In this document: positions 18,611 through 55,482 of the stretch, in pieces
Layout: every line of letters starts with the position of its first letter
Numbering within the stretch: the stretch's first letter is position 1
Source of the DNA: an uncultured bacterium
Lineage (GTDB): Bacteria > Bacillota_I > Bacilli_A > RFN20 > CAG-826
Assembly (NCBI GenBank): GCA_949299165.1
Contig: CASFZJ010000002.1
Location: forward strand, 4,924 to 68,923
Direction: 5' to 3'
Length of the DNA stretch: 64,000 nucleotides
The notes under the pieces: model-generated
Told to the model about the DNA's origin: nothing
Databases searched by the model: none
The model's input: the letters and a program-made list of their open reading frames with translations, nothing else
Program-made: the position numbers and the translations under genes

Positions 18611-19738
18611 CTAACCTCTGATTGTCGATAAAATTTCTTTAAATATTTCAATAAATTTTTCACATTCTTCAAGTGTCGTATCTTTAGATAAAGATAATCT
18701 TATTGAATTGAACGCTTCTTTCATAGTTTTTCCTAGAGAAAGCAGAACATAAGATGGTTCTTCTTTTTTTGAATTACACGCTGAAACACTTGAACAATAT
18801 ATTTCATGGTTTGATAAAGCTTCAACTATAACGCTAGCTTTCTTGCTTTTTAAAGAAAAATTAATAATGTAAGGAGAACAATTTGAATTACTATTTAAAG
18901 AAACTTCCTCAATTTTACTGAGTTCATTTAACAAAAAACCTTGCAAAACCTTAATATTTTTATAATTTTTATCAAAATTAGCAATTGCATTATTTAATGA
19001 AACATTAAACGAAACAATTGAAGGATAATCAAGTGTGCCGCTTCTTAATCCGTTTTCTTGACCACCACCATAAATAATTGGATTTAGCAAAATTTTCTTT
19101 TTCTTAATTAAAGCGCCAATTCCTTTAATACCATAAATTTTATGAGCGCTGATTGTTATCAAATCAGATAATGAATAATCGAAATTTTCTTTGCCTAAAG
19201 TTTGGGCACAATCGCAATGCAAAACACATTTAGGATATTTTTTGATGATTTCTTTGATATCTTTGACATTTAAGATACATCCAATTTCGTTGTTAACTGG
19301 CATAATTGAAACCAAAATAGTTTGAGAATCAATTATTTTTTCAAATTCATTGACGTTAATCTTTCCATTTTCATCAACATTTAAATAACTAACTTGGAAA
19401 CCTTGAGTTTCTAAATATTTGAAAACATTTAATACACTCTCGTGTTCAATTTTTGTGGTGATTAATTTGTTACCTCTATTTTTATTTCTTAAGGCGTAAC
19501 CAATGATAGCTAAATTATTTGACTCACTAGCCCCACTTGTAAAAATAACTTCATAAGAAGTATCAAGTTTTAGCTTTTTAAGGAAATTGTCTTTTATTCG
19601 ATTAATTTCATTAAAAAGTTTCATGGCTGGACCATGGATGGAGTTAGGGTTATAAAATGAATTTAAGCTCGCTTCATAAAAAGCATCTAAACACTCTTTT
19701 GAAGGCTTAGTACTACTTGCGTTATCTAAATAAATCAT
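18611..19738 (-). CDS. Cysteine desulfurase (NifS/NifZ-like, class V aminotransferase)
   Basis: 375 aa, PLP-lysine context SAHKIYGIKGIGAL. Adjacent to thiI as in Bacillus nifZ-thiI. Confidence 0.85.
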   Translation of the reverse strand: MIYLDNASSTKPSKECLDAFYEASLNSFYNPNSIHGPAMKLFNEINRIKDNFLKKLKLDTSYEVIFTSGASESNNLAIIGYALRNKNRGNKLITTKIEHESVLNVFKYLETQGFQVSYLNVDENGKINVNEFEKIIDSQTILVSIMPVNNEIGCILNVKDIKEIIKKYPKCVLHCDCAQTLGKENFDYSLSDLITISAHKIYGIKGIGALIKKKKILLNPIIYGGGQENGLRSGTLDYPSIVSFNVSLNNAIANFDKNYKNIKVLQGFLLNELSKIEEVSLNSNSNCSPYIINFSLKSKKASVIVEALSNHEIYCSSVSACNSKKEEPSYVLLSLGKTMKEAFNSIRLSLSKDTTLEECEKFIEIFKEILSTIRG

Positions 19739-21474
19739 TGTTTATCTCTAAAATTAAGTTTGTTAAGAGCTTGCTCTGTCATGTCGTATGCTGATTTAAA
19801 ATCACCATTTAAATATAATGTTTCAGCTTGTGAAACTATATTGTTGATTTCAGCAAATTTCATTCTATCGCGATTAATAAGCAATATATTTTCACTAGCT
19901 AAATTACGATAGTTATTCAAATCTTGAATTTCTTTAACAAGATTATTTGTTTTATCATTAAGTTCTCTTTGATATTGATTCACTTGATTAACCTCAATTG
20001 GAACTTTGACTAAAAGTTTTGAGATATCATCAATTAAAGCATAACAATCGTCGAAACGATCTTTAAAATAATCTTGATATTTATCGACTTTTAGTTCTCT
20101 TATAATCAATTCGTGTTCTTTTAATTGATCGTATTTTGCTCTTATATTTTTATAAGCAGTTTCACTATCATTTTTTAAAGAAATTAAATAATCGTTGAAC
20201 GAGTTAATACGATTGCTGATTTCTCTTGTGCCATTTTCTAACACTTTTAATTTGTTTAAAAGCTCACTATAAGGATAAGGCTCAATATTACGCATATATT
20301 GATCAAGTTTTCTTTTATCTCTACTAACATCTTCAACTTTGTTACGAATATTCTTTAATTCTTGAGCATGGTCTTCATCAATAACATAAATTTTATTAAA
20401 TCTAGCGATATTGTTATTGATTTTGACAAGTTCTTTATCATAATTTAAGAATTCATTGATGATAATATCTTTCTTTTCATTGAATTCTTTATAAGCAACA
20501 TCTTCTTCTTTAAACTTTTCAAATAAATCATCAATAATTTTATTAATTTCGATAGTTTCTTTTTTAAGATTTGAAATAGCTAAATTCTTAATGTTGCTAC
20601 GTTCTGTTTCAAGCGCATCATTAATTTCACTAATAAGTAGTTCAACATTAAGATGATTTAAAGGTCTTCCTTCTTTAACTAATTTTTCATATTCATCATT
20701 TAAACTTTTAACTTTGGCAGGAATGTTTTCATTCACTTCTTTAGTTAAAGCTGGGATTTCATCAATTAATCTATCGAGTAAATTTAAAACTTTATCAAGT
20801 TCAGGAATAATAGCTTTGGCATCATCATAATTTGCGTTTTCGACTAAATCTTCAAAATCATTAAATTTGCGATCAATTTTTGCAAAAACTTGTTGGAAAG
20901 ATGAAGCAACAAAAACTAATTCGTTTTCATTAAAATTAAATTTAGACTTAACATCACGGAATTTTTCTTTCTCGCTTAGCATCATTTGACGTGCATCTTC
21001 TTCTGGTTTAATGACATTAACTAAATCGTTATTTAAATTATTAACCGCATCTTCATATTGCTTAATGATTGGGGTTTTTTCTTTTAAAAATAATTTAAAT
21101 TCACGGCACTTATTCTCATCTAAAAATGCTTGAAGTTGGAAAATTACATCTTGATATTTTTGGTCAATAGTTTCGCGAATTTCTTTGCTTCTTTTAAAAT
21201 AAGAAGCATGGATATCGCTATATAAAAGATTTGTTCGAGAAATAATTTCAAGTCTTTGGATATATGAATTATCTTGTCCAGTTAATAAAGCATGTAAATA
21301 TTCATATTTCGATTGTAGTGAATCAAGTTGTTTTTGACATTTCTTTCTATTTAAATAAAATTTCGATAATAAAAAGTAAGTTAAAAAACTTAATAATAAA
21401 ACTGCAATTAAAACCGATACAACAACTGCGACTATGACTTCCATAGCCAAACCATCTAAAACAAAAATATTCAT
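19735..21474 (-). CDS. ezrA: Septation ring formation regulator EzrA
   Basis: N-terminal single TM followed by about 550 aa of coiled coil; the C-terminal patch resembles Bacillus EzrA; conserved position upstream of nifZ-thiI. Confidence 0.75.
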   Translation of the reverse strand: MNIFVLDGLAMEVIVAVVVSVLIAVLLLSFLTYFLLSKFYLNRKKCQKQLDSLQSKYEYLHALLTGQDNSYIQRLEIISRTNLLYSDIHASYFKRSKEIRETIDQKYQDVIFQLQAFLDENKCREFKLFLKEKTPIIKQYEDAVNNLNNDLVNVIKPEEDARQMMLSEKEKFRDVKSKFNFNENELVFVASSFQQVFAKIDRKFNDFEDLVENANYDDAKAIIPELDKVLNLLDRLIDEIPALTKEVNENIPAKVKSLNDEYEKLVKEGRPLNHLNVELLISEINDALETERSNIKNLAISNLKKETIEINKIIDDLFEKFKEEDVAYKEFNEKKDIIINEFLNYDKELVKINNNIARFNKIYVIDEDHAQELKNIRNKVEDVSRDKRKLDQYMRNIEPYPYSELLNKLKVLENGTREISNRINSFNDYLISLKNDSETAYKNIRAKYDQLKEHELIIRELKVDKYQDYFKDRFDDCYALIDDISKLLVKVPIEVNQVNQYQRELNDKTNNLVKEIQDLNNYRNLASENILLINRDRMKFAEINNIVSQAETLYLNGDFKSAYDMTEQALNKLNFRDKQ

Positions 21475-21536
21475 AATTATTCCCTTCTAGTATTTTATAC
21501 TAGAAGTTGAGATTTTTCTATATTGACTCATTAATA

Positions 21537-21575
21537 AAAACAGCCACCAATTTTGAATTGATGACTGCTTAAACT
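21537..21575 (-). terminator. Probable terminator downstream of rpsD
   Basis: 12-bp imperfect stem with G-U pairs, followed by TTTTT on the minus strand. Confidence 0.4.
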
Positions 21576-21594
21576 TGCTACATTTAAATTACAA

Positions 21595-22221
21595 CTAGAT
21601 AATTCTGTTGTAGTATTCAACGATTAATGCTTCGTTGATATCTTTAGATAATTCACTTCTTTCAGGTAATCTAAGGAATTTACCTTCTTTCTTTTCCTTA
21701 TCAACTTCTACATAAGGAACTGTAACAGTTGTGTTGTCTAAAGAAGTTTTGATAACAGCGATGTCTTTGCTGTTTTCTTTAATTCCAATTACATCATTTA
21801 CATGGCATAAATATGATGGGATATCAATAGTTCTGCCATTAACAACGATGTGTTTGTGGTTTACGAGTTGGCGAGCTGCTCTTCTTGTTGGAGCAAAACC
21901 AAGTCTGTAAACTAAGTTGTCAAGTCTAGATTCAAGAATTGTCATGAATGCAGTACCAGTAACATCTTTTGACTTACGAGCCATTAAGAACAATCTCCTA
22001 AATTGGCGTTCGTTGACTCCGTAAAGATCTCTTAATTTTTGTTTTTCATTTAATTGTTTTCCGTACTCAGATAATTTTTTCTTTTCAGCACCGTGCATAC
22101 CTGGAGCATAATCTCTATGATCGCCTTTCTTTAAAGTATGACCATTAAATTCTTCTCCAGTTCCTAGTAATGAAAATCCTAATCTTCTAGCACGTTTCCA
22201 TTTAGGTCCTACATAACGCAT
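21595..22221 (-). CDS. rpsD: 30S ribosomal protein S4
   Basis: 208 aa, conserved S4 N-terminal sequence MRYVGPKWKRARRLG and S4 RNA-binding domain. Confidence 0.95.
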   Translation of the reverse strand: MRYVGPKWKRARRLGFSLLGTGEEFNGHTLKKGDHRDYAPGMHGAEKKKLSEYGKQLNEKQKLRDLYGVNERQFRRLFLMARKSKDVTGTAFMTILESRLDNLVYRLGFAPTRRAARQLVNHKHIVVNGRTIDIPSYLCHVNDVIGIKENSKDIAVIKTSLDNTTVTVPYVEVDKEKKEGKFLRLPERSELSKDINEALIVEYYNRII

Positions 22222-22475
22222 ATTTTAATCTCCTTTGTGTTCTAACGATGTAAAGAAAGATTCATAAATTCCTTTTCTCAGGATGAATTGACTAGAGTTT
22301 CTGTTGTGTAGCTCAACTTACTTCTTTGGAATAATCCTCAATTCATTTGACAGAAAGTATTTACATGCTGCTTTACATGCGCTGTATAAAAGTAATACAA
22401 AATGCAAGAAATGTCAAGTTTAACTTGCAGTAAAGTTCACGCGGTAGCTCCAACAGCCTTAGAAGCTTTTCTTTC

Positions 22476-22581
22476 TTAAAGCTCTTAAGTTCTTACTTCA
22501 ACGCCCCACCTATCAATTTAGGTGTTTTGTGAGCTCCATAAGCTTGAATTCCGGGTCAGACCTCCGTACTAAATTTAATCT
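22476..22581 (-). ncRNA. Candidate TnpB right-end / omega-RNA (reRNA) scaffold immediately 3' of the tnpB stop
   Basis: Non-coding 105 nt starting at the tnpB stop (minus strand ATTAAATTTAGTACGGAGGTCTGACCCGGAATTCAAGCTT...). It is about 70% identical over about 95 nt to a second copy at 48728-48820. Confidence 0.45.
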
Positions 22582-23928
22582 TTAATTATGTGGAATTGCA
22601 TCTATTCTTTTATCAAAATTTGCTTGATTAGCAAGATTTTTAAACGAATTAGATACATTTATTGGTTCAACGAAAGAATAATTAATGCCGTTTTTTATAC
22701 AATCAGTAATTATTTTATCTTTCTCCGCAATCGTTAATTTGGACGTTCCAAATCCTATTTTCTTTTTCATATACTTAAATAAATTGCACGCCGCATTAAA
22801 ATCACGATCAATGGCGACGCCGCAATTGTCACATCTATAAATTCTATCATTTAAATCCAAGTTGTTTTTAATAGCACCGCACTTAACACATCTTTTAGAA
22901 CTAGGATAAAATTTTCCTGCTTCAACAAATACTCTGTCCGCTATCGAATTGCATTTGTTTTTAATAAGCACTTTTAAATTATTAAAGCCTATATCATTAT
23001 TTTTTCGAGAAAAAAACTTCTTTTGCATTAAATTATCGATTTCCAAATCTTCCATGCAAATACCATCAAAATTTCTAACTAGAACTGAAGTAACCTTATT
23101 ATTGTAATTCTCTCGTTTATTCAAAGCTTTTAAATAAAATTTCGCTAATTTTTGTTGCATTTTCAAATAATTATTTGATTTTTTATATGTTCCATCCTCT
23201 TGCATAACTAGTGACTTTCTTTGCAATTCCTTGTTTAAATGCTTTAAACGCCTTAAATTTTTATACAAGAATAAAGGAGCATCAATTACTAGTCCGCATG
23301 AAGTAGTAAGTGTATTTTTAAGGCCCAAATCAATTCCAATTGTTTTTCCGTTTCTCAAAAATTTGTAAGAGTGAGTAGCTTCGAAATAAGACTTAGGTAT
23401 TTTGAAAAGCATAGCTACATAATATTTGCCATCTGTTCTTTTAAAAGTGCAGGAAATTAATGTTCCATGAAAACGTAATTTATCCAATATTTTTATTGGT
23501 CCGCTTAACCCACTAAAGTATATGAAGTTTTTAACGCTACTTTCTTTGGCTCTTATAGAAACACTTCCTCCCTTTAAATAGAAAGCATTTGATAAATATT
23601 TTTTCTTAAACTTTAACTTTAGTAAACCGCCTTCTTTAGTTTTTGTTTTAGCGACGCGAACTGCCTTATTAAGATTTTGAAACACTTTATTTTCAAGATT
23701 GATATCAATCCCGTTTAAAAAATCGAATTCTTTTTTCTTTTTTAAATAAATATTTCTGATTAAGTCTCCATTTAACTTTTCTTTTTCCGTTTCACTTGCG
23801 TTATTAAAGTATTCAACTCCAAAGTTATAAATAAATCTCGCTTTCCCAAATAAATTCTCCAAAACTTCAATTTGAGACTTATTAGGATCTAATCTAACTT
23901 TTTGTGCTATATAAATAAATTCTTCCAT
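22582..23928 (-). CDS. tnpB: TnpB (OrfB_IS605) RNA-guided nuclease-type transposon protein with intact RuvC triad and zinc finger
   Basis: N-terminal HTH. RuvC-I IGIDLGLKN, RuvC-II ICMEDLEID, zinc finger CVKCG...CDNCG, RuvC-III AIDRDFNAACN. Confidence 0.9.
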   Translation of the reverse strand: MEEFIYIAQKVRLDPNKSQIEVLENLFGKARFIYNFGVEYFNNASETEKEKLNGDLIRNIYLKKKKEFDFLNGIDINLENKVFQNLNKAVRVAKTKTKEGGLLKLKFKKKYLSNAFYLKGGSVSIRAKESSVKNFIYFSGLSGPIKILDKLRFHGTLISCTFKRTDGKYYVAMLFKIPKSYFEATHSYKFLRNGKTIGIDLGLKNTLTTSCGLVIDAPLFLYKNLRRLKHLNKELQRKSLVMQEDGTYKKSNNYLKMQQKLAKFYLKALNKRENYNNKVTSVLVRNFDGICMEDLEIDNLMQKKFFSRKNNDIGFNNLKVLIKNKCNSIADRVFVEAGKFYPSSKRCVKCGAIKNNLDLNDRIYRCDNCGVAIDRDFNAACNLFKYMKKKIGFGTSKLTIAEKDKIITDCIKNGINYSFVEPINVSNSFKNLANQANFDKRIDAIPHN

Positions 23929-24181
23929 AATAATTTCACTCCTTTCTAATCAACTAATTTTTTGTTTTTCCTTTCTAAGTCATAATTTCATCCTTTCTAG
24001 TGGTTTAAGTTATTTGGAATTTGATTCTTTTTTCAAAATAACTTTTTACCCCTTTACTAATACAACGGGGATGAAAATCAATTTTGTTAAAAAAATTTTA
24101 AAATTTTTCAAAAAAAGTTTTTTCAGTGTTAAAAAAGGCACAAAATTTCAAAGATTTTTAAGGATATGATAAAATCTTCTT

Positions 24182-47749: not shown

Positions 47750-48226
47750 TTAATGTCCATAATATCTTTTAACAACTTCGATAAGTTCTTTATCTGTAAT
47801 TTTTTTCGTAATAGTTTTATTAGATTTTTTCAAAATCGAAAACATTTTAATATTGTTTTTTTCAAAAATTTCAAATTCTAAATAAAAATCACCAATTTTT
47901 TCATATTCTAATTGAATGCTATTTCTCGCCGTAGGAAAAATATCTGGCTGTGAATCTAATTTATCAATAATTGTTCTTGCATATTCAACTAATTCTTTTG
48001 AAAATCGTTTGGCTCCATATTGATTCCAATTATCACTTAAACTAGCAATCCTATTTAGCGTTTCATAACTTTGAATCTTACATAAATCAATATTTCTTGT
48101 ATCAAAATTTTGTTTTGGACTATTATCGGTGCCAACAGAATTAGGAATAATATCAATATTATTAAATGAATAAGAAAAGTTGCGATTATTTTTTGAATAA
48201 TCTGATGCTGATAGAATTAGATTCAT
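47750..48226 (-). CDS. Cassette gene B1 (unknown function; paralog of 54648-55130)
   Basis: 158 aa. Shares a conserved block with B2 (NWNQYGAKRFSKELVEYARTIIDKLDSQPDIFPTARNSIQLEYEK...LEFEIFEKN versus NRNGYGAHSFDKKTIQRFLSIINFLEIQPKISPTGRKTLVLAYEK...LSFEIFENK). Its start overlaps the A1 stop (ATGA). Confidence 0.5.
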   Translation of the reverse strand: MNLILSASDYSKNNRNFSYSFNNIDIIPNSVGTDNSPKQNFDTRNIDLCKIQSYETLNRIASLSDNWNQYGAKRFSKELVEYARTIIDKLDSQPDIFPTARNSIQLEYEKIGDFYLEFEIFEKNNIKMFSILKKSNKTITKKITDKELIEVVKRYYGH

Positions 48227-48645
48227 ATCCTTTTTCCTCCTTCAACTGTTATTAATCTTTCGCCAAGTAATTCATCATTAAGATAAATCTTGGTTGAATA
48301 TAAACCACTTTCTTTAAAAAGAATATTTTTAAACTCAAATCTTAAGTTTATGCTAGTTAAGTTTTTATCGTTAATTTCTTCTTTTTTAACTTTAGGAATA
48401 GTAATTTCGCCAGAATTAAATAAAATTTCTTTTGTCCCGAAATCTTGTTGAAAAACAAGTTTTATTTTGTTTTCTTTTTCATTATCAACACCTAAAAGCG
48501 AAAATACGACTGAAAAAGTAATGGCTCCAGGTAAACAATCTGATTTTAAAGCGCACAAAACATTCAATGCATTAATTGCATTAAGGTCACTAGATATTTG
48601 GCTATCTGCACAATAAACAAAGTTTGTTAAAGTTACCATAATCAC
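48223..48645 (-). CDS. Cassette gene A1 (unknown function; paralog of 54218-54664)
   Basis: 140 aa. Shares TLTNFVYCADSQ / TVTNFIFCENSK and NILFKESGLYSTKIYLNDELLGERLI / NILFKKEGECIAKIFFDDELIGEKHI blocks with A2. Confidence 0.5.
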   Translation of the reverse strand: MIMVTLTNFVYCADSQISSDLNAINALNVLCALKSDCLPGAITFSVVFSLLGVDNEKENKIKLVFQQDFGTKEILFNSGEITIPKVKKEEINDKNLTSINLRFEFKNILFKESGLYSTKIYLNDELLGERLITVEGGKRI

Positions 48646-48727
48646 CTCTTGTTTTTATTATAATTTAAAATTAGGTGAACGACTATTGGAGAAAGAGCTG
48701 TCGTTCGTGATCGTTTGTTCATATTCT

Positions 48728-48820
48728 CTAAAGAGCTTCTTGCTTCATAGATGCCACTATTTCAGGTATTTCATCTCCACAAGCTTGAATTCCGGGCATG
48801 ACTTCCGTACTGAATTTAAT
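48728..48820 (-). ncRNA. Orphan IS605 right-end / omega-RNA-like element without an adjacent tnpB
   Basis: About 70% identity over 93 nt to the element abutting the tnpB stop codon at 22476-22579. It includes the shared core AAGCTTGAATTCCGGG...GAC-TCCGTACT-AATTTAAT, has the same relative orientation, and lies directly upstream of cassette gene A1. The ORF-track ORF 48686-48901 overlapping it is probably non-coding. Confidence 0.45.
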
Positions 48821-49057
48821 AGCTGGTTATTTTTGTTATTTTGCTATGTGTATACATACACTTCTTCCGTTTTGTCTCATATAGCTATCATTAATGAGTA
48901 GAAGCAATATTTCGGTGTAGCAGACCTACTTTCCTTAAAATTTAAACTTTAAGTTAAGTCATTTGAAAATACCTCCTCACTTATTACAAAGGAGATTAAA
49001 ATCAAAAACGTTAAAAATATTTTTCAAAAATTAAATTTTCTTCAAATTTCTATGAAA

Positions 49058-49225
49058 TGAAAAACCTAACTTTTTGCAAATTTCTTTATTTTATAAACAT
49101 AGAATTTTGCAAATTTTGCTATTTTGAAAACCTAGAATTTTGCAAATTTTGGTGTTTTAGAAACATAGAATTTTGTAAATTTTCATATTTTTAGAAACTA
49201 AGTTTTTACAAATTTCGAGATTATA
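49058..49225. repeat. Approximately 34-bp tandem repeat array (about 5 units) with a palindromic TTTGCAAA core in each unit (iteron-like)
   Basis: Units such as AAACATAGAATTTTGCAAATTTTGCTATTTTG repeated head-to-tail with progressive degeneration; non-coding, AT-rich. Confidence 0.6.
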
Positions 49226-49652: not shown

Positions 49653-49720
49653 TGTCGCTTTCGTGTCGCTTTCGTGTCGTTTTCGTGTCGTTTTCGTGTC
49701 GCTTTCGTGTCGTTTTCGTT
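49653..49720. repeat. 11-bp tandem repeat array TCGTGTCG(C/T)TT, about 6 units, abutting a promoter -10 element
   Basis: TGTCGCTT then five full units TCGTGTCGCTT/TCGTGTCGTTT, then TCGTT, immediately followed by TGATATAAT. Confidence 0.75.
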
Positions 49721-49751: not shown

Positions 49752-51080
49752 TTGTGTTTTATGGATTTATTTGAGTCAAACAGAATAGAATTTAAAGCAA
49801 AAATTACTGATCAACTTGTACGTGAGATAGTCGCGTTTTTGAACACTGATGGCGGAAAAATATATATAGGTATTAGCGATGATGGCAAAGTTATTGGTAC
49901 AAAAAATATTGATGAATCGCTTAGAATCATATCTGATATTGTTTGCTCTCAAATTGAACCATCTCCAATAGAATTAGTAAAAAGTGATATTCATTTTTTA
50001 GAGAACCAACCAGTTATTGTGGTTAATGTTGATAAAGGGACTGAATCAATTTATTGTATTAAAAAATATGGTTTTTCAAGTGTAGGCTGCCCAATAAGAG
50101 TTGGATCTACTTGCCGAGAAATGAGTCAAGAGCAAGTTCAATACAGATATAAAATGCGCTATTCTGATGATGATTTGTTAGTTTCATCACCGACAAACTT
50201 ACCTGAACTTTCGTTTGTTACTTTAAAAAATTATTATTCAAATATTGGCCTTAAATTAAATGACGAAAATTTCAAAAACAACCTCAATCTCCTGAACAAA
50301 AAAGGCCAATATAATAAATTAGCAGAATTAGTTTCGGATAATAGTCGCTATTCATTTATCTTTGTTAAGTTTGAAGGAGCAAATAAGGCTTCACTTTCAC
50401 AAAGAAGCAACTATGGAAACAAATCTATATTATTTGCTTATGAACAAATGAAAAATCGAATTGAAGCTGAAAACATCTGCATCTCTGATACAACCACAAG
50501 ACCAAGAATCGATAAATTTCTATATAACATCGAATCTGTTGATGAAGCCATTATCAATGCAATAGTCCACAATGATTGGAGTGTTGGAGAACCACAAGTT
50601 GCTTTTTTTAACAATAGAATTGAGATTATCTCTCATGGTGGTTTACCACATAATTTAACTAAGGAAGAATACTTTGCTGGAATTACAAAACCTAGAAATG
50701 CCGCTTTAATGAAAATATTTTCTGATTTAGATATCGCAGATAATACTGGACATGGCATTCCAACTATTATTGAACATTATGGTAAAGATGTTTTTGATAT
50801 TGAACCAAATCACATTATAATAAGCATTCCGTTTGATAAAGATATACTAGAAAGATTCAAAAGAGAGCATACCGATATAATCAATTTTGATTTGAATGAA
50901 CCAGAAAAGTTGATATTAGAACAACTTTCACTTGACCCAACAACTACTGCACAAAAAATCGCATTAAAACTCAAAAAAAGTCGAAGAACTATCGAGCGTT
51001 ATTTAAAATCCTTACAAGCAAAAGATTATATTGAACGAGTTGGAACCATACGAAATGGTTATTGGAAAATAATAAAGTAA
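49752..51080 (+). CDS. AlbA_2 (Schlafen-like) domain protein with C-terminal histidine-kinase-like ATPase and wHTH (paralog of 26727-28142)
   Basis: N-terminal AFLNTDGGKIYIGISDDGKVIGT AlbA_2 core; C-terminal block paralogous to the first copy. Likely ATG start at 49761. Confidence 0.65.
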   Translation: MCFMDLFESNRIEFKAKITDQLVREIVAFLNTDGGKIYIGISDDGKVIGTKNIDESLRIISDIVCSQIEPSPIELVKSDIHFLENQPVIVVNVDKGTESIYCIKKYGFSSVGCPIRVGSTCREMSQEQVQYRYKMRYSDDDLLVSSPTNLPELSFVTLKNYYSNIGLKLNDENFKNNLNLLNKKGQYNKLAELVSDNSRYSFIFVKFEGANKASLSQRSNYGNKSILFAYEQMKNRIEAENICISDTTTRPRIDKFLYNIESVDEAIINAIVHNDWSVGEPQVAFFNNRIEIISHGGLPHNLTKEEYFAGITKPRNAALMKIFSDLDIADNTGHGIPTIIEHYGKDVFDIEPNHIIISIPFDKDILERFKREHTDIINFDLNEPEKLILEQLSLDPTTTAQKIALKLKKSRRTIERYLKSLQAKDYIERVGTIRNGYWKIIK

Positions 51081-51643: not shown

Positions 51644-52933
51644 CTATTTAGACTGGTCATCGTTATTCTTTTCTTCGCCAATCAATCTTACAAGGTCACT
51701 CCTTTTAAGTATTTTATTTTTAACTACTTCATCTGCGATTATACTTAGTACCTTTTTATATTTTCTAAGTCTTCTTTTTACAATGTGATAGGTTTTCATC
51801 ATGAATTTATTTACTCTTTTTGCGTAAGTCTTTTTCTCATATTCACTTATTGACTCACCACGATATCTTAAAGATTTAGGTGCGTGGAAATCGATTGCGT
51901 TTATGTTTACTCCGTTCAGTAAATTAAATGAAGAAGTGTAGGCTTTTTCTAAATCATTAGAACATCCTATATCGTGTTTTTTATAGAAAAGTTCTTCAGC
52001 GACTAATCCTGCAAGTGCTATTTGAATGTCTTCAATCTGATTTTCTCGATTATCCTCAAAAAGATCAGTTGAATAGGTATATCCTCTTTGCTCATAACAT
52101 CTAATTCTAAAAAACTTTTTGCTTCTAGAAAATTTATAAATATATAAGGCGTGTCCTGCTTCATGAAGTGCGATGACTCTAGGCACAACATAGTCTTCTT
52201 TACTTTCAACACATCCCGTATCTAAAAAAGTTAATTCATTAATAAAATCATCAAGTTCTGCCTCTTTACCCTTTTTAAAATAAACCATATTAAAAAGTGT
52301 TTTGATTTTGCTAATTGATGAGCCAGATAAATGTTGTCTTAATTCTTCAATTTCGTCGTCCACTCTTTCAATATTAAAACCTCTATCTTTTAATAAATGC
52401 TTGATGATCTCTTTTAATTCTTTATTATTAAAAACTTTAATTTCATATTTTCGATCAAAACGACCTTCTCTTACTAAAGAATCTGGTAAGTCGTAATAAA
52501 AATTGGCACTAGCGAGTGTTAAAACATTCCCTTCTTTTTTAAATCCATCAAGTTCAGTTTGTAAAACTCTTTCAAGTTTTGTATCGCGCTCTACAAGACG
52601 ATCTACCTCATCAATTATTATAATTGCGCCTTTTTCTTCTTTTTTAGCTTCTTTATAAGTCGAAACTAAAACTTCATCTAAATTTTCTTTATCTCCTTCG
52701 ATAACAAAAATTTTATAGTCAAAAGTTTTAGCGAATTCTCTCATGAGCAAAGTTTTCCCTTGCCCTGGATCGCCATAAAACAAAATTCCATGAGGTAAAA
52801 ATTCTCTTTTATCTTCTTCTAATTCATTATTTAAATACCATCCTAAAATCTCATATAACTCATCTTTAACGCCTTGATATCCATAAACTTTTGATAAAAA
52901 CTCATTTCTTGAATTCATAATTTTTAGCCTCAC
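51644..52933 (-). CDS. Soluble FtsH-like AAA+ ATPase with C-terminal M41-type zinc metalloprotease domain (no transmembrane region)
   Basis: Walker A GDPGQGKT, Walker B IIIIDEVD. HEAGHAL zinc motif and downstream GCSNDLEKAY matching the FtsH peptidase region (HEAGHA... / GASNDIERAT). 429 aa, lacking the FtsH N-terminal TM and periplasmic part. Confidence 0.65.
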   Translation of the reverse strand: MRLKIMNSRNEFLSKVYGYQGVKDELYEILGWYLNNELEEDKREFLPHGILFYGDPGQGKTLLMREFAKTFDYKIFVIEGDKENLDEVLVSTYKEAKKEEKGAIIIIDEVDRLVERDTKLERVLQTELDGFKKEGNVLTLASANFYYDLPDSLVREGRFDRKYEIKVFNNKELKEIIKHLLKDRGFNIERVDDEIEELRQHLSGSSISKIKTLFNMVYFKKGKEAELDDFINELTFLDTGCVESKEDYVVPRVIALHEAGHALYIYKFSRSKKFFRIRCYEQRGYTYSTDLFEDNRENQIEDIQIALAGLVAEELFYKKHDIGCSNDLEKAYTSSFNLLNGVNINAIDFHAPKSLRYRGESISEYEKKTYAKRVNKFMMKTYHIVKRRLRKYKKVLSIIADEVVKNKILKRSDLVRLIGEEKNNDDQSK

Positions 52934-53015: not shown

Positions 53016-54020
53016 CTAACCTTTTAAATAATCTAACAAGATATTTTTAATTTTATCTTTTAAGAAAGATGGAGAAATTACTTTTACTACTTGAAGATAT
53101 TGTAAACACCAAAATAAAATTGCATTTTCATTACCTTTAATATAGGCAAAAATTTCATCATTTTCATTTACGATATAAGAGTTTTCATTAAACCAATCTT
53201 TAACAAATAAAACTGCGTGTTCGTTTTTGAGTTTAATTTTAGCTTCAATTATTTCTCCACCATAAAAATAAATATGGTTATTAATATATTCAGTGATTTC
53301 AAAATCTTTATATTTAGAATCTAGATCTTTTAATGCAGTGTAATATTTATCGCTTTCAATTATTTCAACATCCTTTAAATAATCAATTCGAAAAGTGTTA
53401 AGCGTTTTATAATCAGCTCGATAATTACATAAAAGATAGTATCGTCCTGAATTATTTACGAGGAAATAAGGCGAAACTTTATAAATAAATCCATTCAAGC
53501 GATAAACTTCTTTTCCATATTTATCATAATCAATTACTTTAAAAGCTACTCGCTTTTTGTTTTTAATCGCTTCAAGAAGAAGCGAAATAGTATACATTAT
53601 TTCATTATTTTTAGTTCTAGCAACTTCGCTAGTTTTATAGAGATATGAAGAGTTAAAATTAAAAAGTTCTTTTTCTTTATTTTGTGAAAATGTCGAAGAT
53701 ATCTTTTTAATTAAATTTTTAGCTTCTTTAGCGTTAATACTCCTACTAGAAAATATTGAATCAATTAAATAATTCGCTTCTGTTTCATCAAAAAGACGAG
53801 AAAATAAAGCAACTCCACCTTTTTCTTTCCTAACTAAGTCATAACCTAATTCTTCAAGTAAATTTAAAGAATAAGCGATAGATTTTCTTTCTAACTCAAC
53901 GCCATATAATTCATATATCTTATTAATAATATCTTGTTGAGTTAAAAAATGTTCTTCATCACTATATTTTTCTAAAACTTTAAGAACTAATAATATTGAT
54001 GCTTTTTTGTTTTCGATCAT
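53016..54020 (-). CDS. HTH-WYL-domain transcriptional regulator (BrxR/CapW-like)
   Basis: N-terminal wHTH region, central WYL-like block RYYLLCNYRADYKTLNTFRIDYLKDVEII, about 330 aa as in BrxR-type regulators. Confidence 0.6.
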   Translation of the reverse strand: MIENKKASILLVLKVLEKYSDEEHFLTQQDIINKIYELYGVELERKSIAYSLNLLEELGYDLVRKEKGGVALFSRLFDETEANYLIDSIFSSRSINAKEAKNLIKKISSTFSQNKEKELFNFNSSYLYKTSEVARTKNNEIMYTISLLLEAIKNKKRVAFKVIDYDKYGKEVYRLNGFIYKVSPYFLVNNSGRYYLLCNYRADYKTLNTFRIDYLKDVEIIESDKYYTALKDLDSKYKDFEITEYINNHIYFYGGEIIEAKIKLKNEHAVLFVKDWFNENSYIVNENDEIFAYIKGNENAILFWCLQYLQVVKVISPSFLKDKIKNILLDYLKG

Positions 54021-54217
54021 AAGTTTTCTCTTGATTATATTATAGAGGAATTATCGTTAAGAAAGAGTTAAAATGTTCATTAATCTAATTAAATTGTGTT
54101 TTTATATATAAAATTCTGAAAAATATTAAGGTTTTGCAAGGATTTTCAATAATATAGACAATATATACGGAAAAATAATTAAAGTCCTGTCACTTCACCT
54201 TTTGCCTTCACTAAGCA

Positions 54218-54664
54218 TTGAAAATATGGCCAAAAACAAATAAAATAATTACTAAGGAGACAAAGAAGATTATGGCAACTGTTACAAACTTTATTTTTTG
54301 TGAAAATTCTAAAATCGACGAAAACGGAAATACTTCTGTCGTTAATATTTTAAACTATTTTTCTTTATCAATATTGCCAACTCAATTTACTTTTGATCTC
54401 TATTTTACAGTAGCTAAATTTGAAACAGGCGATCACAAGATAAAATTTATTATGCTTGATAGTGACAATAATATCCTCGCAGAAACTCCTGACATAAATG
54501 TTAAATTATTAAAAACATCCGACACAATTGATGATGTAAATTTTGTTAATTTCACTTTAAATCTTCGAAATATTCTTTTTAAAAAAGAAGGTGAATGCAT
54601 CGCAAAAATATTTTTTGACGATGAACTAATAGGAGAAAAACATATTTATGCGAACAAGAAATGA
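54218..54664 (+). CDS. Cassette gene A2 (unknown function; paralog of 48223-48645)
   Basis: 148 aa; see A1. Overlaps the B2 start by 17 nt. Confidence 0.5.
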   Translation: MKIWPKTNKIITKETKKIMATVTNFIFCENSKIDENGNTSVVNILNYFSLSILPTQFTFDLYFTVAKFETGDHKIKFIMLDSDNNILAETPDINVKLLKTSDTIDDVNFVNFTLNLRNILFKKEGECIAKIFFDDELIGEKHIYANKK

Positions 54665-55130
54665 AATCTTAGCATTTACTCCTCTTTACACTTTAAGTGC
54701 TACTAGTACGACAAAAAATATTAAAAAAAGTAAGCCAAACTACAATTTTAATCAAGCAAAATTTAATGACTCAACTTTAAATTTAAACCGCTTTATTAAT
54801 ATCAAGGCAATTGAGTCGCTCGAAAGCTTAAAAGAAAATCGGAATGGTTATGGGGCGCACTCCTTTGATAAAAAGACTATTCAAAGATTTTTATCTATTA
54901 TTAATTTTTTAGAAATACAACCAAAAATTTCCCCTACCGGAAGAAAAACTTTAGTTTTGGCTTATGAAAAAGATAAAGATGAAAAACTATCATTTGAAAT
55001 TTTTGAAAACAAGATTGATTGCGCCTATTTAAATATGAAAGATTTTTCAAAATCTTATATCAAACAAGTTAACGAAAGTGATCTTAATCAAGAAATAAAT
55101 AAATTTTATGGAAAAAGTTTATCTATATAG
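54648..55130 (+). CDS. Cassette gene B2 (unknown function; paralog of 47750-48226)
   Basis: 160 aa; see B1. Overlaps the next gene by 23 nt. Confidence 0.5.
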   Translation: MRTRNEILAFTPLYTLSATSTTKNIKKSKPNYNFNQAKFNDSTLNLNRFINIKAIESLESLKENRNGYGAHSFDKKTIQRFLSIINFLEIQPKISPTGRKTLVLAYEKDKDEKLSFEIFENKIDCAYLNMKDFSKSYIKQVNESDLNQEINKFYGKSLSI

Positions 55131-55482
55131 ATCTATTAGTAAAGGTGGAATGGATTATTTTTTAAGCAACTCCAGTTGGGTTGGAGCTTTTTTAGATGAT
55201 AGCAAAGATGGTTGCTCTGTCGAATATCAAGGAAAACGAACTGATTTAGATATTTCTAAAGAATTCAGTATCAGATTCGGAAAAAATAAGGGATTCTATG
55301 GTGTTGCAAAATTGATCGAAAGTCAAATCACGTCTGCTACCAATTTTAATCTTGGTGTAAAAAGCGCACCTAGTAAGAATAATTCAAACCACGCATTAAT
55401 TTACGACTTGAACATTGGTCAAATTAACGTTTTACAAGCAAGTTTTCTTGCAACTATCTGCGAAGTTTATGGATTGATTTAA
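55108..55482 (+). CDS. Hypothetical protein C2 translationally coupled to cassette A2-B2 (no counterpart in the first cassette copy)
   Basis: 124-aa ORF overlapping B2; no motif recognised. Confidence 0.35.
   Translation: MEKVYLYRSISKGGMDYFLSNSSWVGAFLDDSKDGCSVEYQGKRTDLDISKEFSIRFGKNKGFYGVAKLIESQITSATNFNLGVKSAPSKNNSNHALIYDLNIGQINVLQASFLATICEVYGLI

Follow-up and report, generated by a model that had tools for sequence, protein, structure and literature searches.

A probable tnpB-less mini-element of the IS200/IS605 type, with a predicted omega-RNA scaffold, upstream of a DUF6941 gene in an uncultured member of the Bacilli

A 64-kb stretch of DNA from an uncultured lineage of Bacilli with ~29% GC (the whole stretch is called the window here) raises the question of what becomes of a guide-RNA element that has no nuclease gene beside it. 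A non-coding element that adjoins a tnpB gene at 22.5 kb has a second copy, the orphan, some 26 kb away, in front of a small gene called A1. The preliminary description of this locus placed the second copy at 48728-48820 with ~70% identity, and regarded it as a solo right end of omega-RNA-like character. What the orphan is, how far it extends, and whether it serves the host or only itself are considered below.

The second copy is confirmed. Global alignment of 22476-22579 with 48728-48820 gives 71.7% identity (76 of 106 columns) and a score of 39, against -12.3 +/- 4.7 in 1000 shuffles, the highest of which reached 6. The best ungapped stretch, 22534-22579 with 48775-48820, is 87% identical over 46 nt (blastn E 7e-10), and AAGCTTGAATTCCGGG occurs at just two sites in the window, 22540 and 48781. 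Both copies are on the minus strand in the same orientation, and the 22.5-kb copy begins 2 nt past the stop codon of the TnpB ORF. The similarity of the orphan to the tnpB-linked copy is real and far above chance. The orphan was also said to be a copy of the element 3' of tnpB that has no tnpB of its own, and this holds: neither a clade HMM nor tblastn with 106 TnpB proteins found tnpB, or a remnant of it, beside the orphan. A decayed tnpB pseudogene adjoining the orphan is rejected, as nothing better than E 0.06 was obtained and the matches were on the wrong strand. A Pfam scan of 20 window ORFs revealed no Y1 transposase (tnpA).

The tnpB-linked element, which occupies 22.4-24.1 kb, consists of the following parts.

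22582-23928, minus strand: resident tnpB, 448 aa, candidate trans partner (Pfam OrfB_IS605, Cas12f1-like_TNB and HTH_OrfB_IS605)
22490-22570, minus strand: predicted tnpB-linked omega-RNA scaffold core (covariance model R1, 75.7 bits)
22418-22489, minus strand: predicted tnpB-linked scaffold tail with a 12-bp hairpin, CUUAAGAGCUUU..AAAGCUUCUAAG (MFE; comparison with loci L005 and L006)
24014-24142, minus strand: left end of the tnpB element, hairpin CCCC..GGGG (nhmmer E 2.5e-22, HMM from relatives only)
22659-22759, minus strand: second, weaker scaffold-core-like fold inside the tnpB ORF (R1 27.8 bits, E 6e-5)

The encoded TnpB appears to be intact. Its RuvC residues D (GIDLG), E (MEDL) and D (DRD) align with D191, E278 and D361 of ISDra2 (structure 8h1j), and dN/dS against relatives is 0.09-0.14, a sign of purifying selection. 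The right end of this element is probably ..CAAGUUAAAC at 22418, as read from the sequence; an alternative end lies after GCUGUUGGAG, at ~22448. The 22418 end abuts the -35 box of rpsD, TTGACA (22417->22412), so that the tnpB-linked guide would be the rpsD promoter sequence itself. In L006, ~28-30 nt that are found between the tail and TTGACA in the window and L005 are missing.

The setting of the resident gene has some features of its own. In three related genomes (window 19735-23928, L005 and L006), the tnpB gene occupies one and the same site, with rpsD on one side and a phosphodiesterase gene on the other. Relative to L005 and L006, its product shows 82% and 66% aa identity, with dS values of 1.15 and 1.76 and dN/dS of about 0.1. 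This is far more diverged than the flanks, where rpsD is 98% identical (dS about 0.3) and ezrA 98.8% (dS 0.63), and it suggests that alleles were replaced, or the site was homed into repeatedly, and that descent was not simply vertical. The 5' leader of rpsD (22222-22390, minus strand), presumably the S4 autoregulatory leader, is 100% identical in five loci whose TnpB proteins differ by up to 34%; it matches no Rfam family at the gathering threshold. Upstream of tnpB, the left-end (LE) module is found in tandem arrays of about four copies in L011 (684-1143; period 124 nt, 96% identity) and L014 (697-1344). L014 and L015 are the same locus, and their comparison gives no boundary.

The fold inside the tnpB ORF also recurs, in L008 (2175-2275, 36 bits), L005 (4170-4270), L006 (1478-1578) and L009 (4173-4225), and its P2 stem changes in a compensatory manner between loci (AUUG/CAAU vs UCUG/CAGA). 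It begins where homology to ISDra2 TnpB stops, at about residue 385 of 448. The right-end core seems to have been duplicated in tandem here, with the upstream copy now coding for a ~60-aa C-terminal extension of this TnpB clade.

The non-coding element can be defined from its family. The nearest TnpB relatives that were recovered together with their contigs have 42-82% aa identity, and all of them carry the same architecture just 3' of the tnpB stop codon: AGUA, a 15-nt hairpin (P1), GAAU(U/A)NANG, a P2 strand, GAG with P3, (U)AUGAAG, the 3' strand of P2 and GAA. P2 is a 4-nt strand with its partner ~45-55 nt downstream, and P3 is a 4-bp stem around a variable hairpin. Across 18 tnpB-adjacent sequences, the 13 proposed pairs are paired in 87.6% of cases vs 22-42% when the partners are slid; 11 of the 13 change on both sides, and none of 500 shuffles reaches the observed values. 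These 18 sequences, all tnpB-adjacent copies, make up the alignment behind the covariance model R1. From its position and from what is known of the IS605 family, the element would be expected to be the TnpB guide-RNA (omega-RNA) scaffold at the right end. The suggestion that it is omega-RNA-like is thereby supported, since it has the conserved covarying architecture expected of such a scaffold.

This scaffold is not restricted to loci with a nuclease gene. When JGI metagenomes were scanned for exact matches to the core motif, 56 loci came out, and these add a hairpin and a terminal (U)AGUUCAC to the core architecture. About 25 of them have TnpB directly upstream, at least 15 have none despite more than 2 kb of upstream DNA, and several retain a C-terminal tnpB stub only. 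In one metagenome family (UBJH01..., Ga0209817), eight loci were aligned and all diverge exactly past GTTCAC. At least five of the eight are full copies of ~330 bp with a common LE and right end (RE) in unrelated flanks, and the remaining three are truncated or different on the LE side. The TnpB-less loci, together with a multi-copy family in unrelated flanks, indicate that gene-less mini-elements with this scaffold are common and mobile elsewhere. Among genome contigs, the strict core pattern matched only the syntenic tnpB locus of one metagenome-assembled genome and one coding region, by chance; in viral contigs it gave no match. Six metagenome loci (L016, L024, L027, L047, L053 and L062) carry a distinct conserved element with a AGTACGGCGGG.CACGTCGGAATTCAGGCTTGGAAG start and a different downstream structure, and tblastn found no TnpB upstream of it.

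The RNA-coding part of the orphan can be divided in two.

48737-48811, minus strand: orphan omega-RNA scaffold core, as predicted by R1 (66.9 bits, E 1.3e-14, spanning all 81 model positions)
48675-48736, minus strand: predicted orphan scaffold tail, with the weak hairpin GCUCUUUAGAG, the hairpin GAACGAC..GUCGUUC and the terminal GUUCAC

A covariance-model search had been proposed for the orphan, and with our own model R1 it gives a full-length match. There are exactly two strong R1 matches in the window, the tnpB-linked core, which is a training member, and the orphan, which was left out of training. The orphan core reads AGUA, P1 (CGG/CCG), GAAUUCAAG, P2 (CUUG/CAAG), GGAG, P3 (GAUG/CAUC), UAUGAAG and GAA, with a short inner hairpin enclosed by P3. 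It therefore keeps all three covarying helices. Compared with the tnpB-linked copy, the changes in P2 (CUUG/CAAG vs CUUA/UAAG) and P3 (GAUG/CAUC vs GCUC/GGGC) are compensatory. P1 has just 3 bp in the orphan and no more in the tnpB-linked copy; the hairpin inside P3 is weak in the orphan. By its match in sequence and predicted structure, 48737-48811 is a TnpB omega-RNA scaffold core, and the resident 448-aa TnpB element has a scaffold of the same family. Folding of single sequences, on either strand, gave no useful signal (z -1.0 to +0.7), and for both loci Rfam gave no relevant family, either at the gathering threshold or at E<=10. The core-like module inside the tnpB ORF has no counterpart at the orphan; if that module belongs to the functional scaffold, the orphan RNA would be incomplete.

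The originally proposed extent of the orphan stands in part. It covers the structured core and ~9 nt of homologous sequence upstream of it, but the element runs past 48728 and probably as far as 48675. The canonical GUUCAC is found at 48680->48675 in the orphan tail. The right-end boundary is probably at 48675, judging from the point past GTTCAC where the metagenome family diverges and from GAGUUAAC at the same place in the relative L072; the other candidate end is after AAUAUGAAC, at 48717. In primary sequence the orphan tail does not resemble that of the tnpB copy, and homology of the tail and of the pre-core region to the resident copy is rejected (z -0.5 and -1.1). Because the cores are 72-87% identical while the tails are unrelated, the orphan is not a fresh deletion of the resident copy.

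Upstream of the core there is a second block of homology, separated from it by a spacer.

48929-49031, minus strand: LE-like block (nhmmer E 1.5e-5, envelope 48918-49053; alignment z 5.6)
48812-48928, minus strand: internal spacer between LE block and core, with no detectable homology to tnpB or the resident tnpB 3' end

The LE HMM was made only from the region upstream of tnpB in four relatives. It matches two sites in the window, 24142-24014 (E 2.5e-22) and 49031-48929 (E 1.5e-5). Alignment of the orphan block with the tnpB LE gives a z of 5.6, with none of 300 shuffles as high; blastn with the whole tnpB element also matches 48982-49032, and the orphan block can be aligned with the LE of all clade loci. 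The block consists of TTTTTAAC-N5-TTGATTTTAATC followed by a hairpin, CUCCU..AGGAG (48994->48973), where the tnpB copy has CCCC..GGGG and relatives have CCUUC..GAAGG. The loop of this hairpin varies in length, so that the 3' arms do not line up in the alignment. TTGAT/TTGAA is conserved ahead of (T)TTCATC in LE copies, as is the sequence upstream. On the far side of the LE, a 33-bp unit is repeated ~4.6 times at 49072-49222, adjoining the mini-element, and the contig L072 breaks there.

The LE block lies 5' of the scaffold core on the same strand, ~120 nt away, so that the unit is a miniature LE+RE element and not the solo right end that had been proposed. The upstream flank, described earlier as non-coding repeat DNA, likewise has to be revised, for the LE homologue sits within it at ~48929-49031. 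The spacer gives nothing significant by tblastn or hmmsearch (pairwise z -1.1), and the only ORF between the ends is a 71-aa ORF with a TTG start on the opposite strand, with no Pfam match. With no trace of tnpB between the blocks or nearby, the unit is not a decayed full-length copy. Both ends are homologous to those of the full-length element (the RE by R1), in the correct order and orientation, and the LE hairpin and RE hairpins are present. Probably, then, the DNA from ~49031-49053 down to 48675 on the minus strand is a selfish, non-autonomous, tnpB-less LE+RE mini-element of ~360 bp, of IS200/IS605 type and similar to PATEs or standalone omega-RNAs. It is the one such mini-element in the 64-kb window.

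One relative allows the age of the insertion to be addressed. L072 holds a homologue of A1 with 91% aa identity and carries the same mini-element at the same position upstream of it; the element thus predates that split. The core is identical at 74 of 75 positions (98.7%), the LE block at 95% and the flank at 100%, with 93-98% for neighbouring genes. Since the conservation of the core is indistinguishable from this background, selection on the mini-element, as judged from L072, cannot be claimed. The terminal motifs of the window and L072 differ by four clustered substitutions (AGUCGUUCAC vs UGAGUUAAC), and both fit the family terminus. No empty site was found; L072, the only relative recovered, is also occupied.

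The closest known systems are PATE-like minimal IS200/IS605 elements and standalone omega-RNAs (Dyall-Smith 2011; Altae-Tran 2021/2023; Meers 2023, PMC10055086; PMC10691335), and the mini-element is a further case of this known and common kind of selfish element. Like PATEs, it is short (~360 bp), has no protein-coding gene, and at both ends, LE and RE, is homologous to a tnpB element from the same genome; as with PATEs and standalone omega-RNAs, its RE encodes a predicted omega-RNA scaffold and a presumably compatible TnpB is encoded elsewhere. Unlike PATEs, it is a single copy in 64 kb, is known from sequence alone, and has a tail that differs from that of the resident tnpB copy. The likeness extends to the omega-RNA (reRNA) of IS605-family elements such as ISDra2 and ISGst, which also form a structured RNA at the right end with covarying stems and a conserved terminal motif, and in which the variable flank past the RE boundary serves as the guide. 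In contrast to these, the AT-rich clade described here has its main core wholly past the stop codon of tnpB, with another core-like fold in the ORF, and its scaffold, unlike canonical omega-RNA, matches no Rfam family. TldR systems are comparable in that they combine a TnpB-family protein with a guide RNA as a possible regulator. However, the resident TnpB keeps its D/E/D residues, and the guide is local flank for which no distant promoter target was found. A domesticated system of the TldR type is rejected, as the RuvC catalytic residues are present.

How such an element could persist may be proposed by analogy with the work of Meers et al. 2023 and Altae-Tran et al.; the steps that go beyond homology and intact structure are inferred. 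If transcribed, the scaffold and the ~16-20 nt of flank that follow the right end would be taken up in trans by the resident TnpB. Once the mini-element had been excised by a Y1 TnpA acting in trans, the loaded TnpB would direct cleavage of the 'empty' donor joint (TAM and flank), which would favour re-copying or retention of the mini-element. The element would in that case be selfish and not a host device. [quoted passage not shown] The intact resident TnpB is a plausible trans partner, and the earlier idea that the orphan could act as a guide-like RNA in trans with the 22.6-kb TnpB is, given the precedents (PMC10055086, PMC10691335), likewise plausible. That this particular copy is still active is doubtful.

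The flank past the right end and the neighbouring gene are as follows.

48655-48674, minus strand: would-be guide flank if the element ends at 48675, CUAAUUUUAAAUUAUAAUAA, as read from the sequence
48223-48639, minus strand: A1 (DUF6941, 138 aa; Pfam PF22091; homologues P0107-P0110)

A1 starts with an ATG at 48639, preceded by the SD AGAGGUG. The orphan lies directly upstream of it and in the same orientation, as had been reported. A1 itself is outside the mini-element, downstream and beyond the right end, and for that reason the suggestion that the orphan is a relic of IS-mediated delivery of the cassette is unsupported. The probable right end at 48675 is 35 nt before the A1 start codon, and the A1 promoter region therefore straddles the element end; a TATAAT is found in the flank upstream of A1, at 48662->48657. 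The exact A1 protein, with either start codon, gave no record on look-up.

A1 is part of one of two paralogous small cassettes in which the DUF6941 gene comes first, at 47750-48639 (-) and 54218-55482 (+), and the mini-element is upstream of the former only. Nearby are a WYL-domain gene (53016-54020), a gene for an IetA-like AAA/M41 protein (51644-52933) and a Schlafen-like gene. The last of these (Schlafen/AlbA_2-HATPase_c_4-wHTH, 49752-51080, +) has six copies of the 11-bp unit TGTCGCTTTCG directly upstream, at 49653-49719. The region of the DUF6941 cassettes is a possible defence island; when the neighbouring genes were scanned with padloc, only weak or partial matches came up. A 39-nt inverted repeat pair (18934-18972 and 54108-54146, 87% identical, of the form AAAACCTTGCAAAACCTTAATATTTTTATAAT) looks like a shared strong promoter, TTGCAA-N17-TATAAT.

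Several other explanations of the orphan can be weighed against a selfish mini-element. The simplest would be a chance similarity or a shared generic terminator hairpin, for which only the AT-rich background speaks. The blastn E of 7e-10, a covariance-model E of 1e-14 with three helices, the shuffle controls and the LE as another homologous block, correctly ordered and oriented, rule out a similarity confined to a terminator hairpin, and this explanation can practically be dismissed. An inert relic, of the same origin but no longer transcribed, loaded or mobilisable and now neutral intergenic DNA, is a distinct possibility. The element is single in the window, where the Pfam scan of 20 ORFs found no tnpA; a promoter scan revealed no convincing sigma-70 promoter inside the mini-element on the minus strand; P1 is short, as is the inner P3 hairpin; the tail does not resemble that of the resident tnpB copy; and conservation in L072 is no greater than background. 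Yet the three covarying helices, the single-stranded motifs and the GUUCAC terminus are all intact, which would be unexpected after long neutral decay at 29% GC.

A further explanation would be that the right end was co-opted in cis, to give part of a promoter (-35/UP) or a structured 5' leader to the DUF6941 operon. A1 is co-oriented with its ATG 35 nt from the element end, TATAAT lies in the flank with the -35 position inside the element, and the arrangement is kept in L072. However, the minus-strand promoter scan was negative, the -35 position is poor, and not the same in the window as in L072, no mini-element precedes the second DUF6941 cassette (54218-55482), and throughout the family the core is appended 3' of tnpB; such a co-option is improbable. 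Alternatively, the orphan RNA could be a domesticated trans guide that directs the resident TnpB to a target in the host or in a phage, for regulation or defence. The surroundings resemble a defence island (WYL, IetA-like AAA and Schlafen/AlbA_2 genes), an intact TnpB is encoded in the same genome, and the use of omega-RNA in trans has been shown in other systems (PMC10691335). Against this, both candidate orphan guides match only their own flank within the window. Other window matches to 48655-48674 have three mismatches and occur at the chance rate, and a guide target within the window, a search for which had been proposed, is rejected. Moreover, the guide is a plain insertion flank, as in any IS copy, the TnpB is catalytically intact and not TldR-like, and the pattern scan of viral contigs gave no matches. 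We give domestication as a trans guide very little credence. The proposal of a domesticated regulatory RNA similarly finds no positive support, the guides matching only themselves and the 54.2-kb DUF6941 cassette having no element. It is also very improbable that the mini-element has been kept because its RNA programmes TnpB for a host task, be it at the A1 promoter junction or at a genome or phage target elsewhere; if true, the locus would be a natural 'extra guide' locus, beyond selfish DNA.

With a selfish mini-element as the preferred reading, the puzzle of a conserved, GC-rich block within a long and AT-rich intergenic region is explained by a tnpB-less element of IS605 type, and the promoter region of A1 (DUF6941) is seen to straddle a transposon end. 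If its RNA loads the resident TnpB, the genome would have a natural arrangement of two guides and one nuclease, the principle of which has already been published. At the level of the family, R1 describes a widespread omega-RNA scaffold that is not in Rfam (AGUA-P1-GAAUUCAAG-P2-GAG-P3-AUGAAG-P2'-GAA-hairpin-GUUCAC), and could serve in the annotation of guide RNAs and PATEs, both in AT-rich Bacilli and in many metagenomes.
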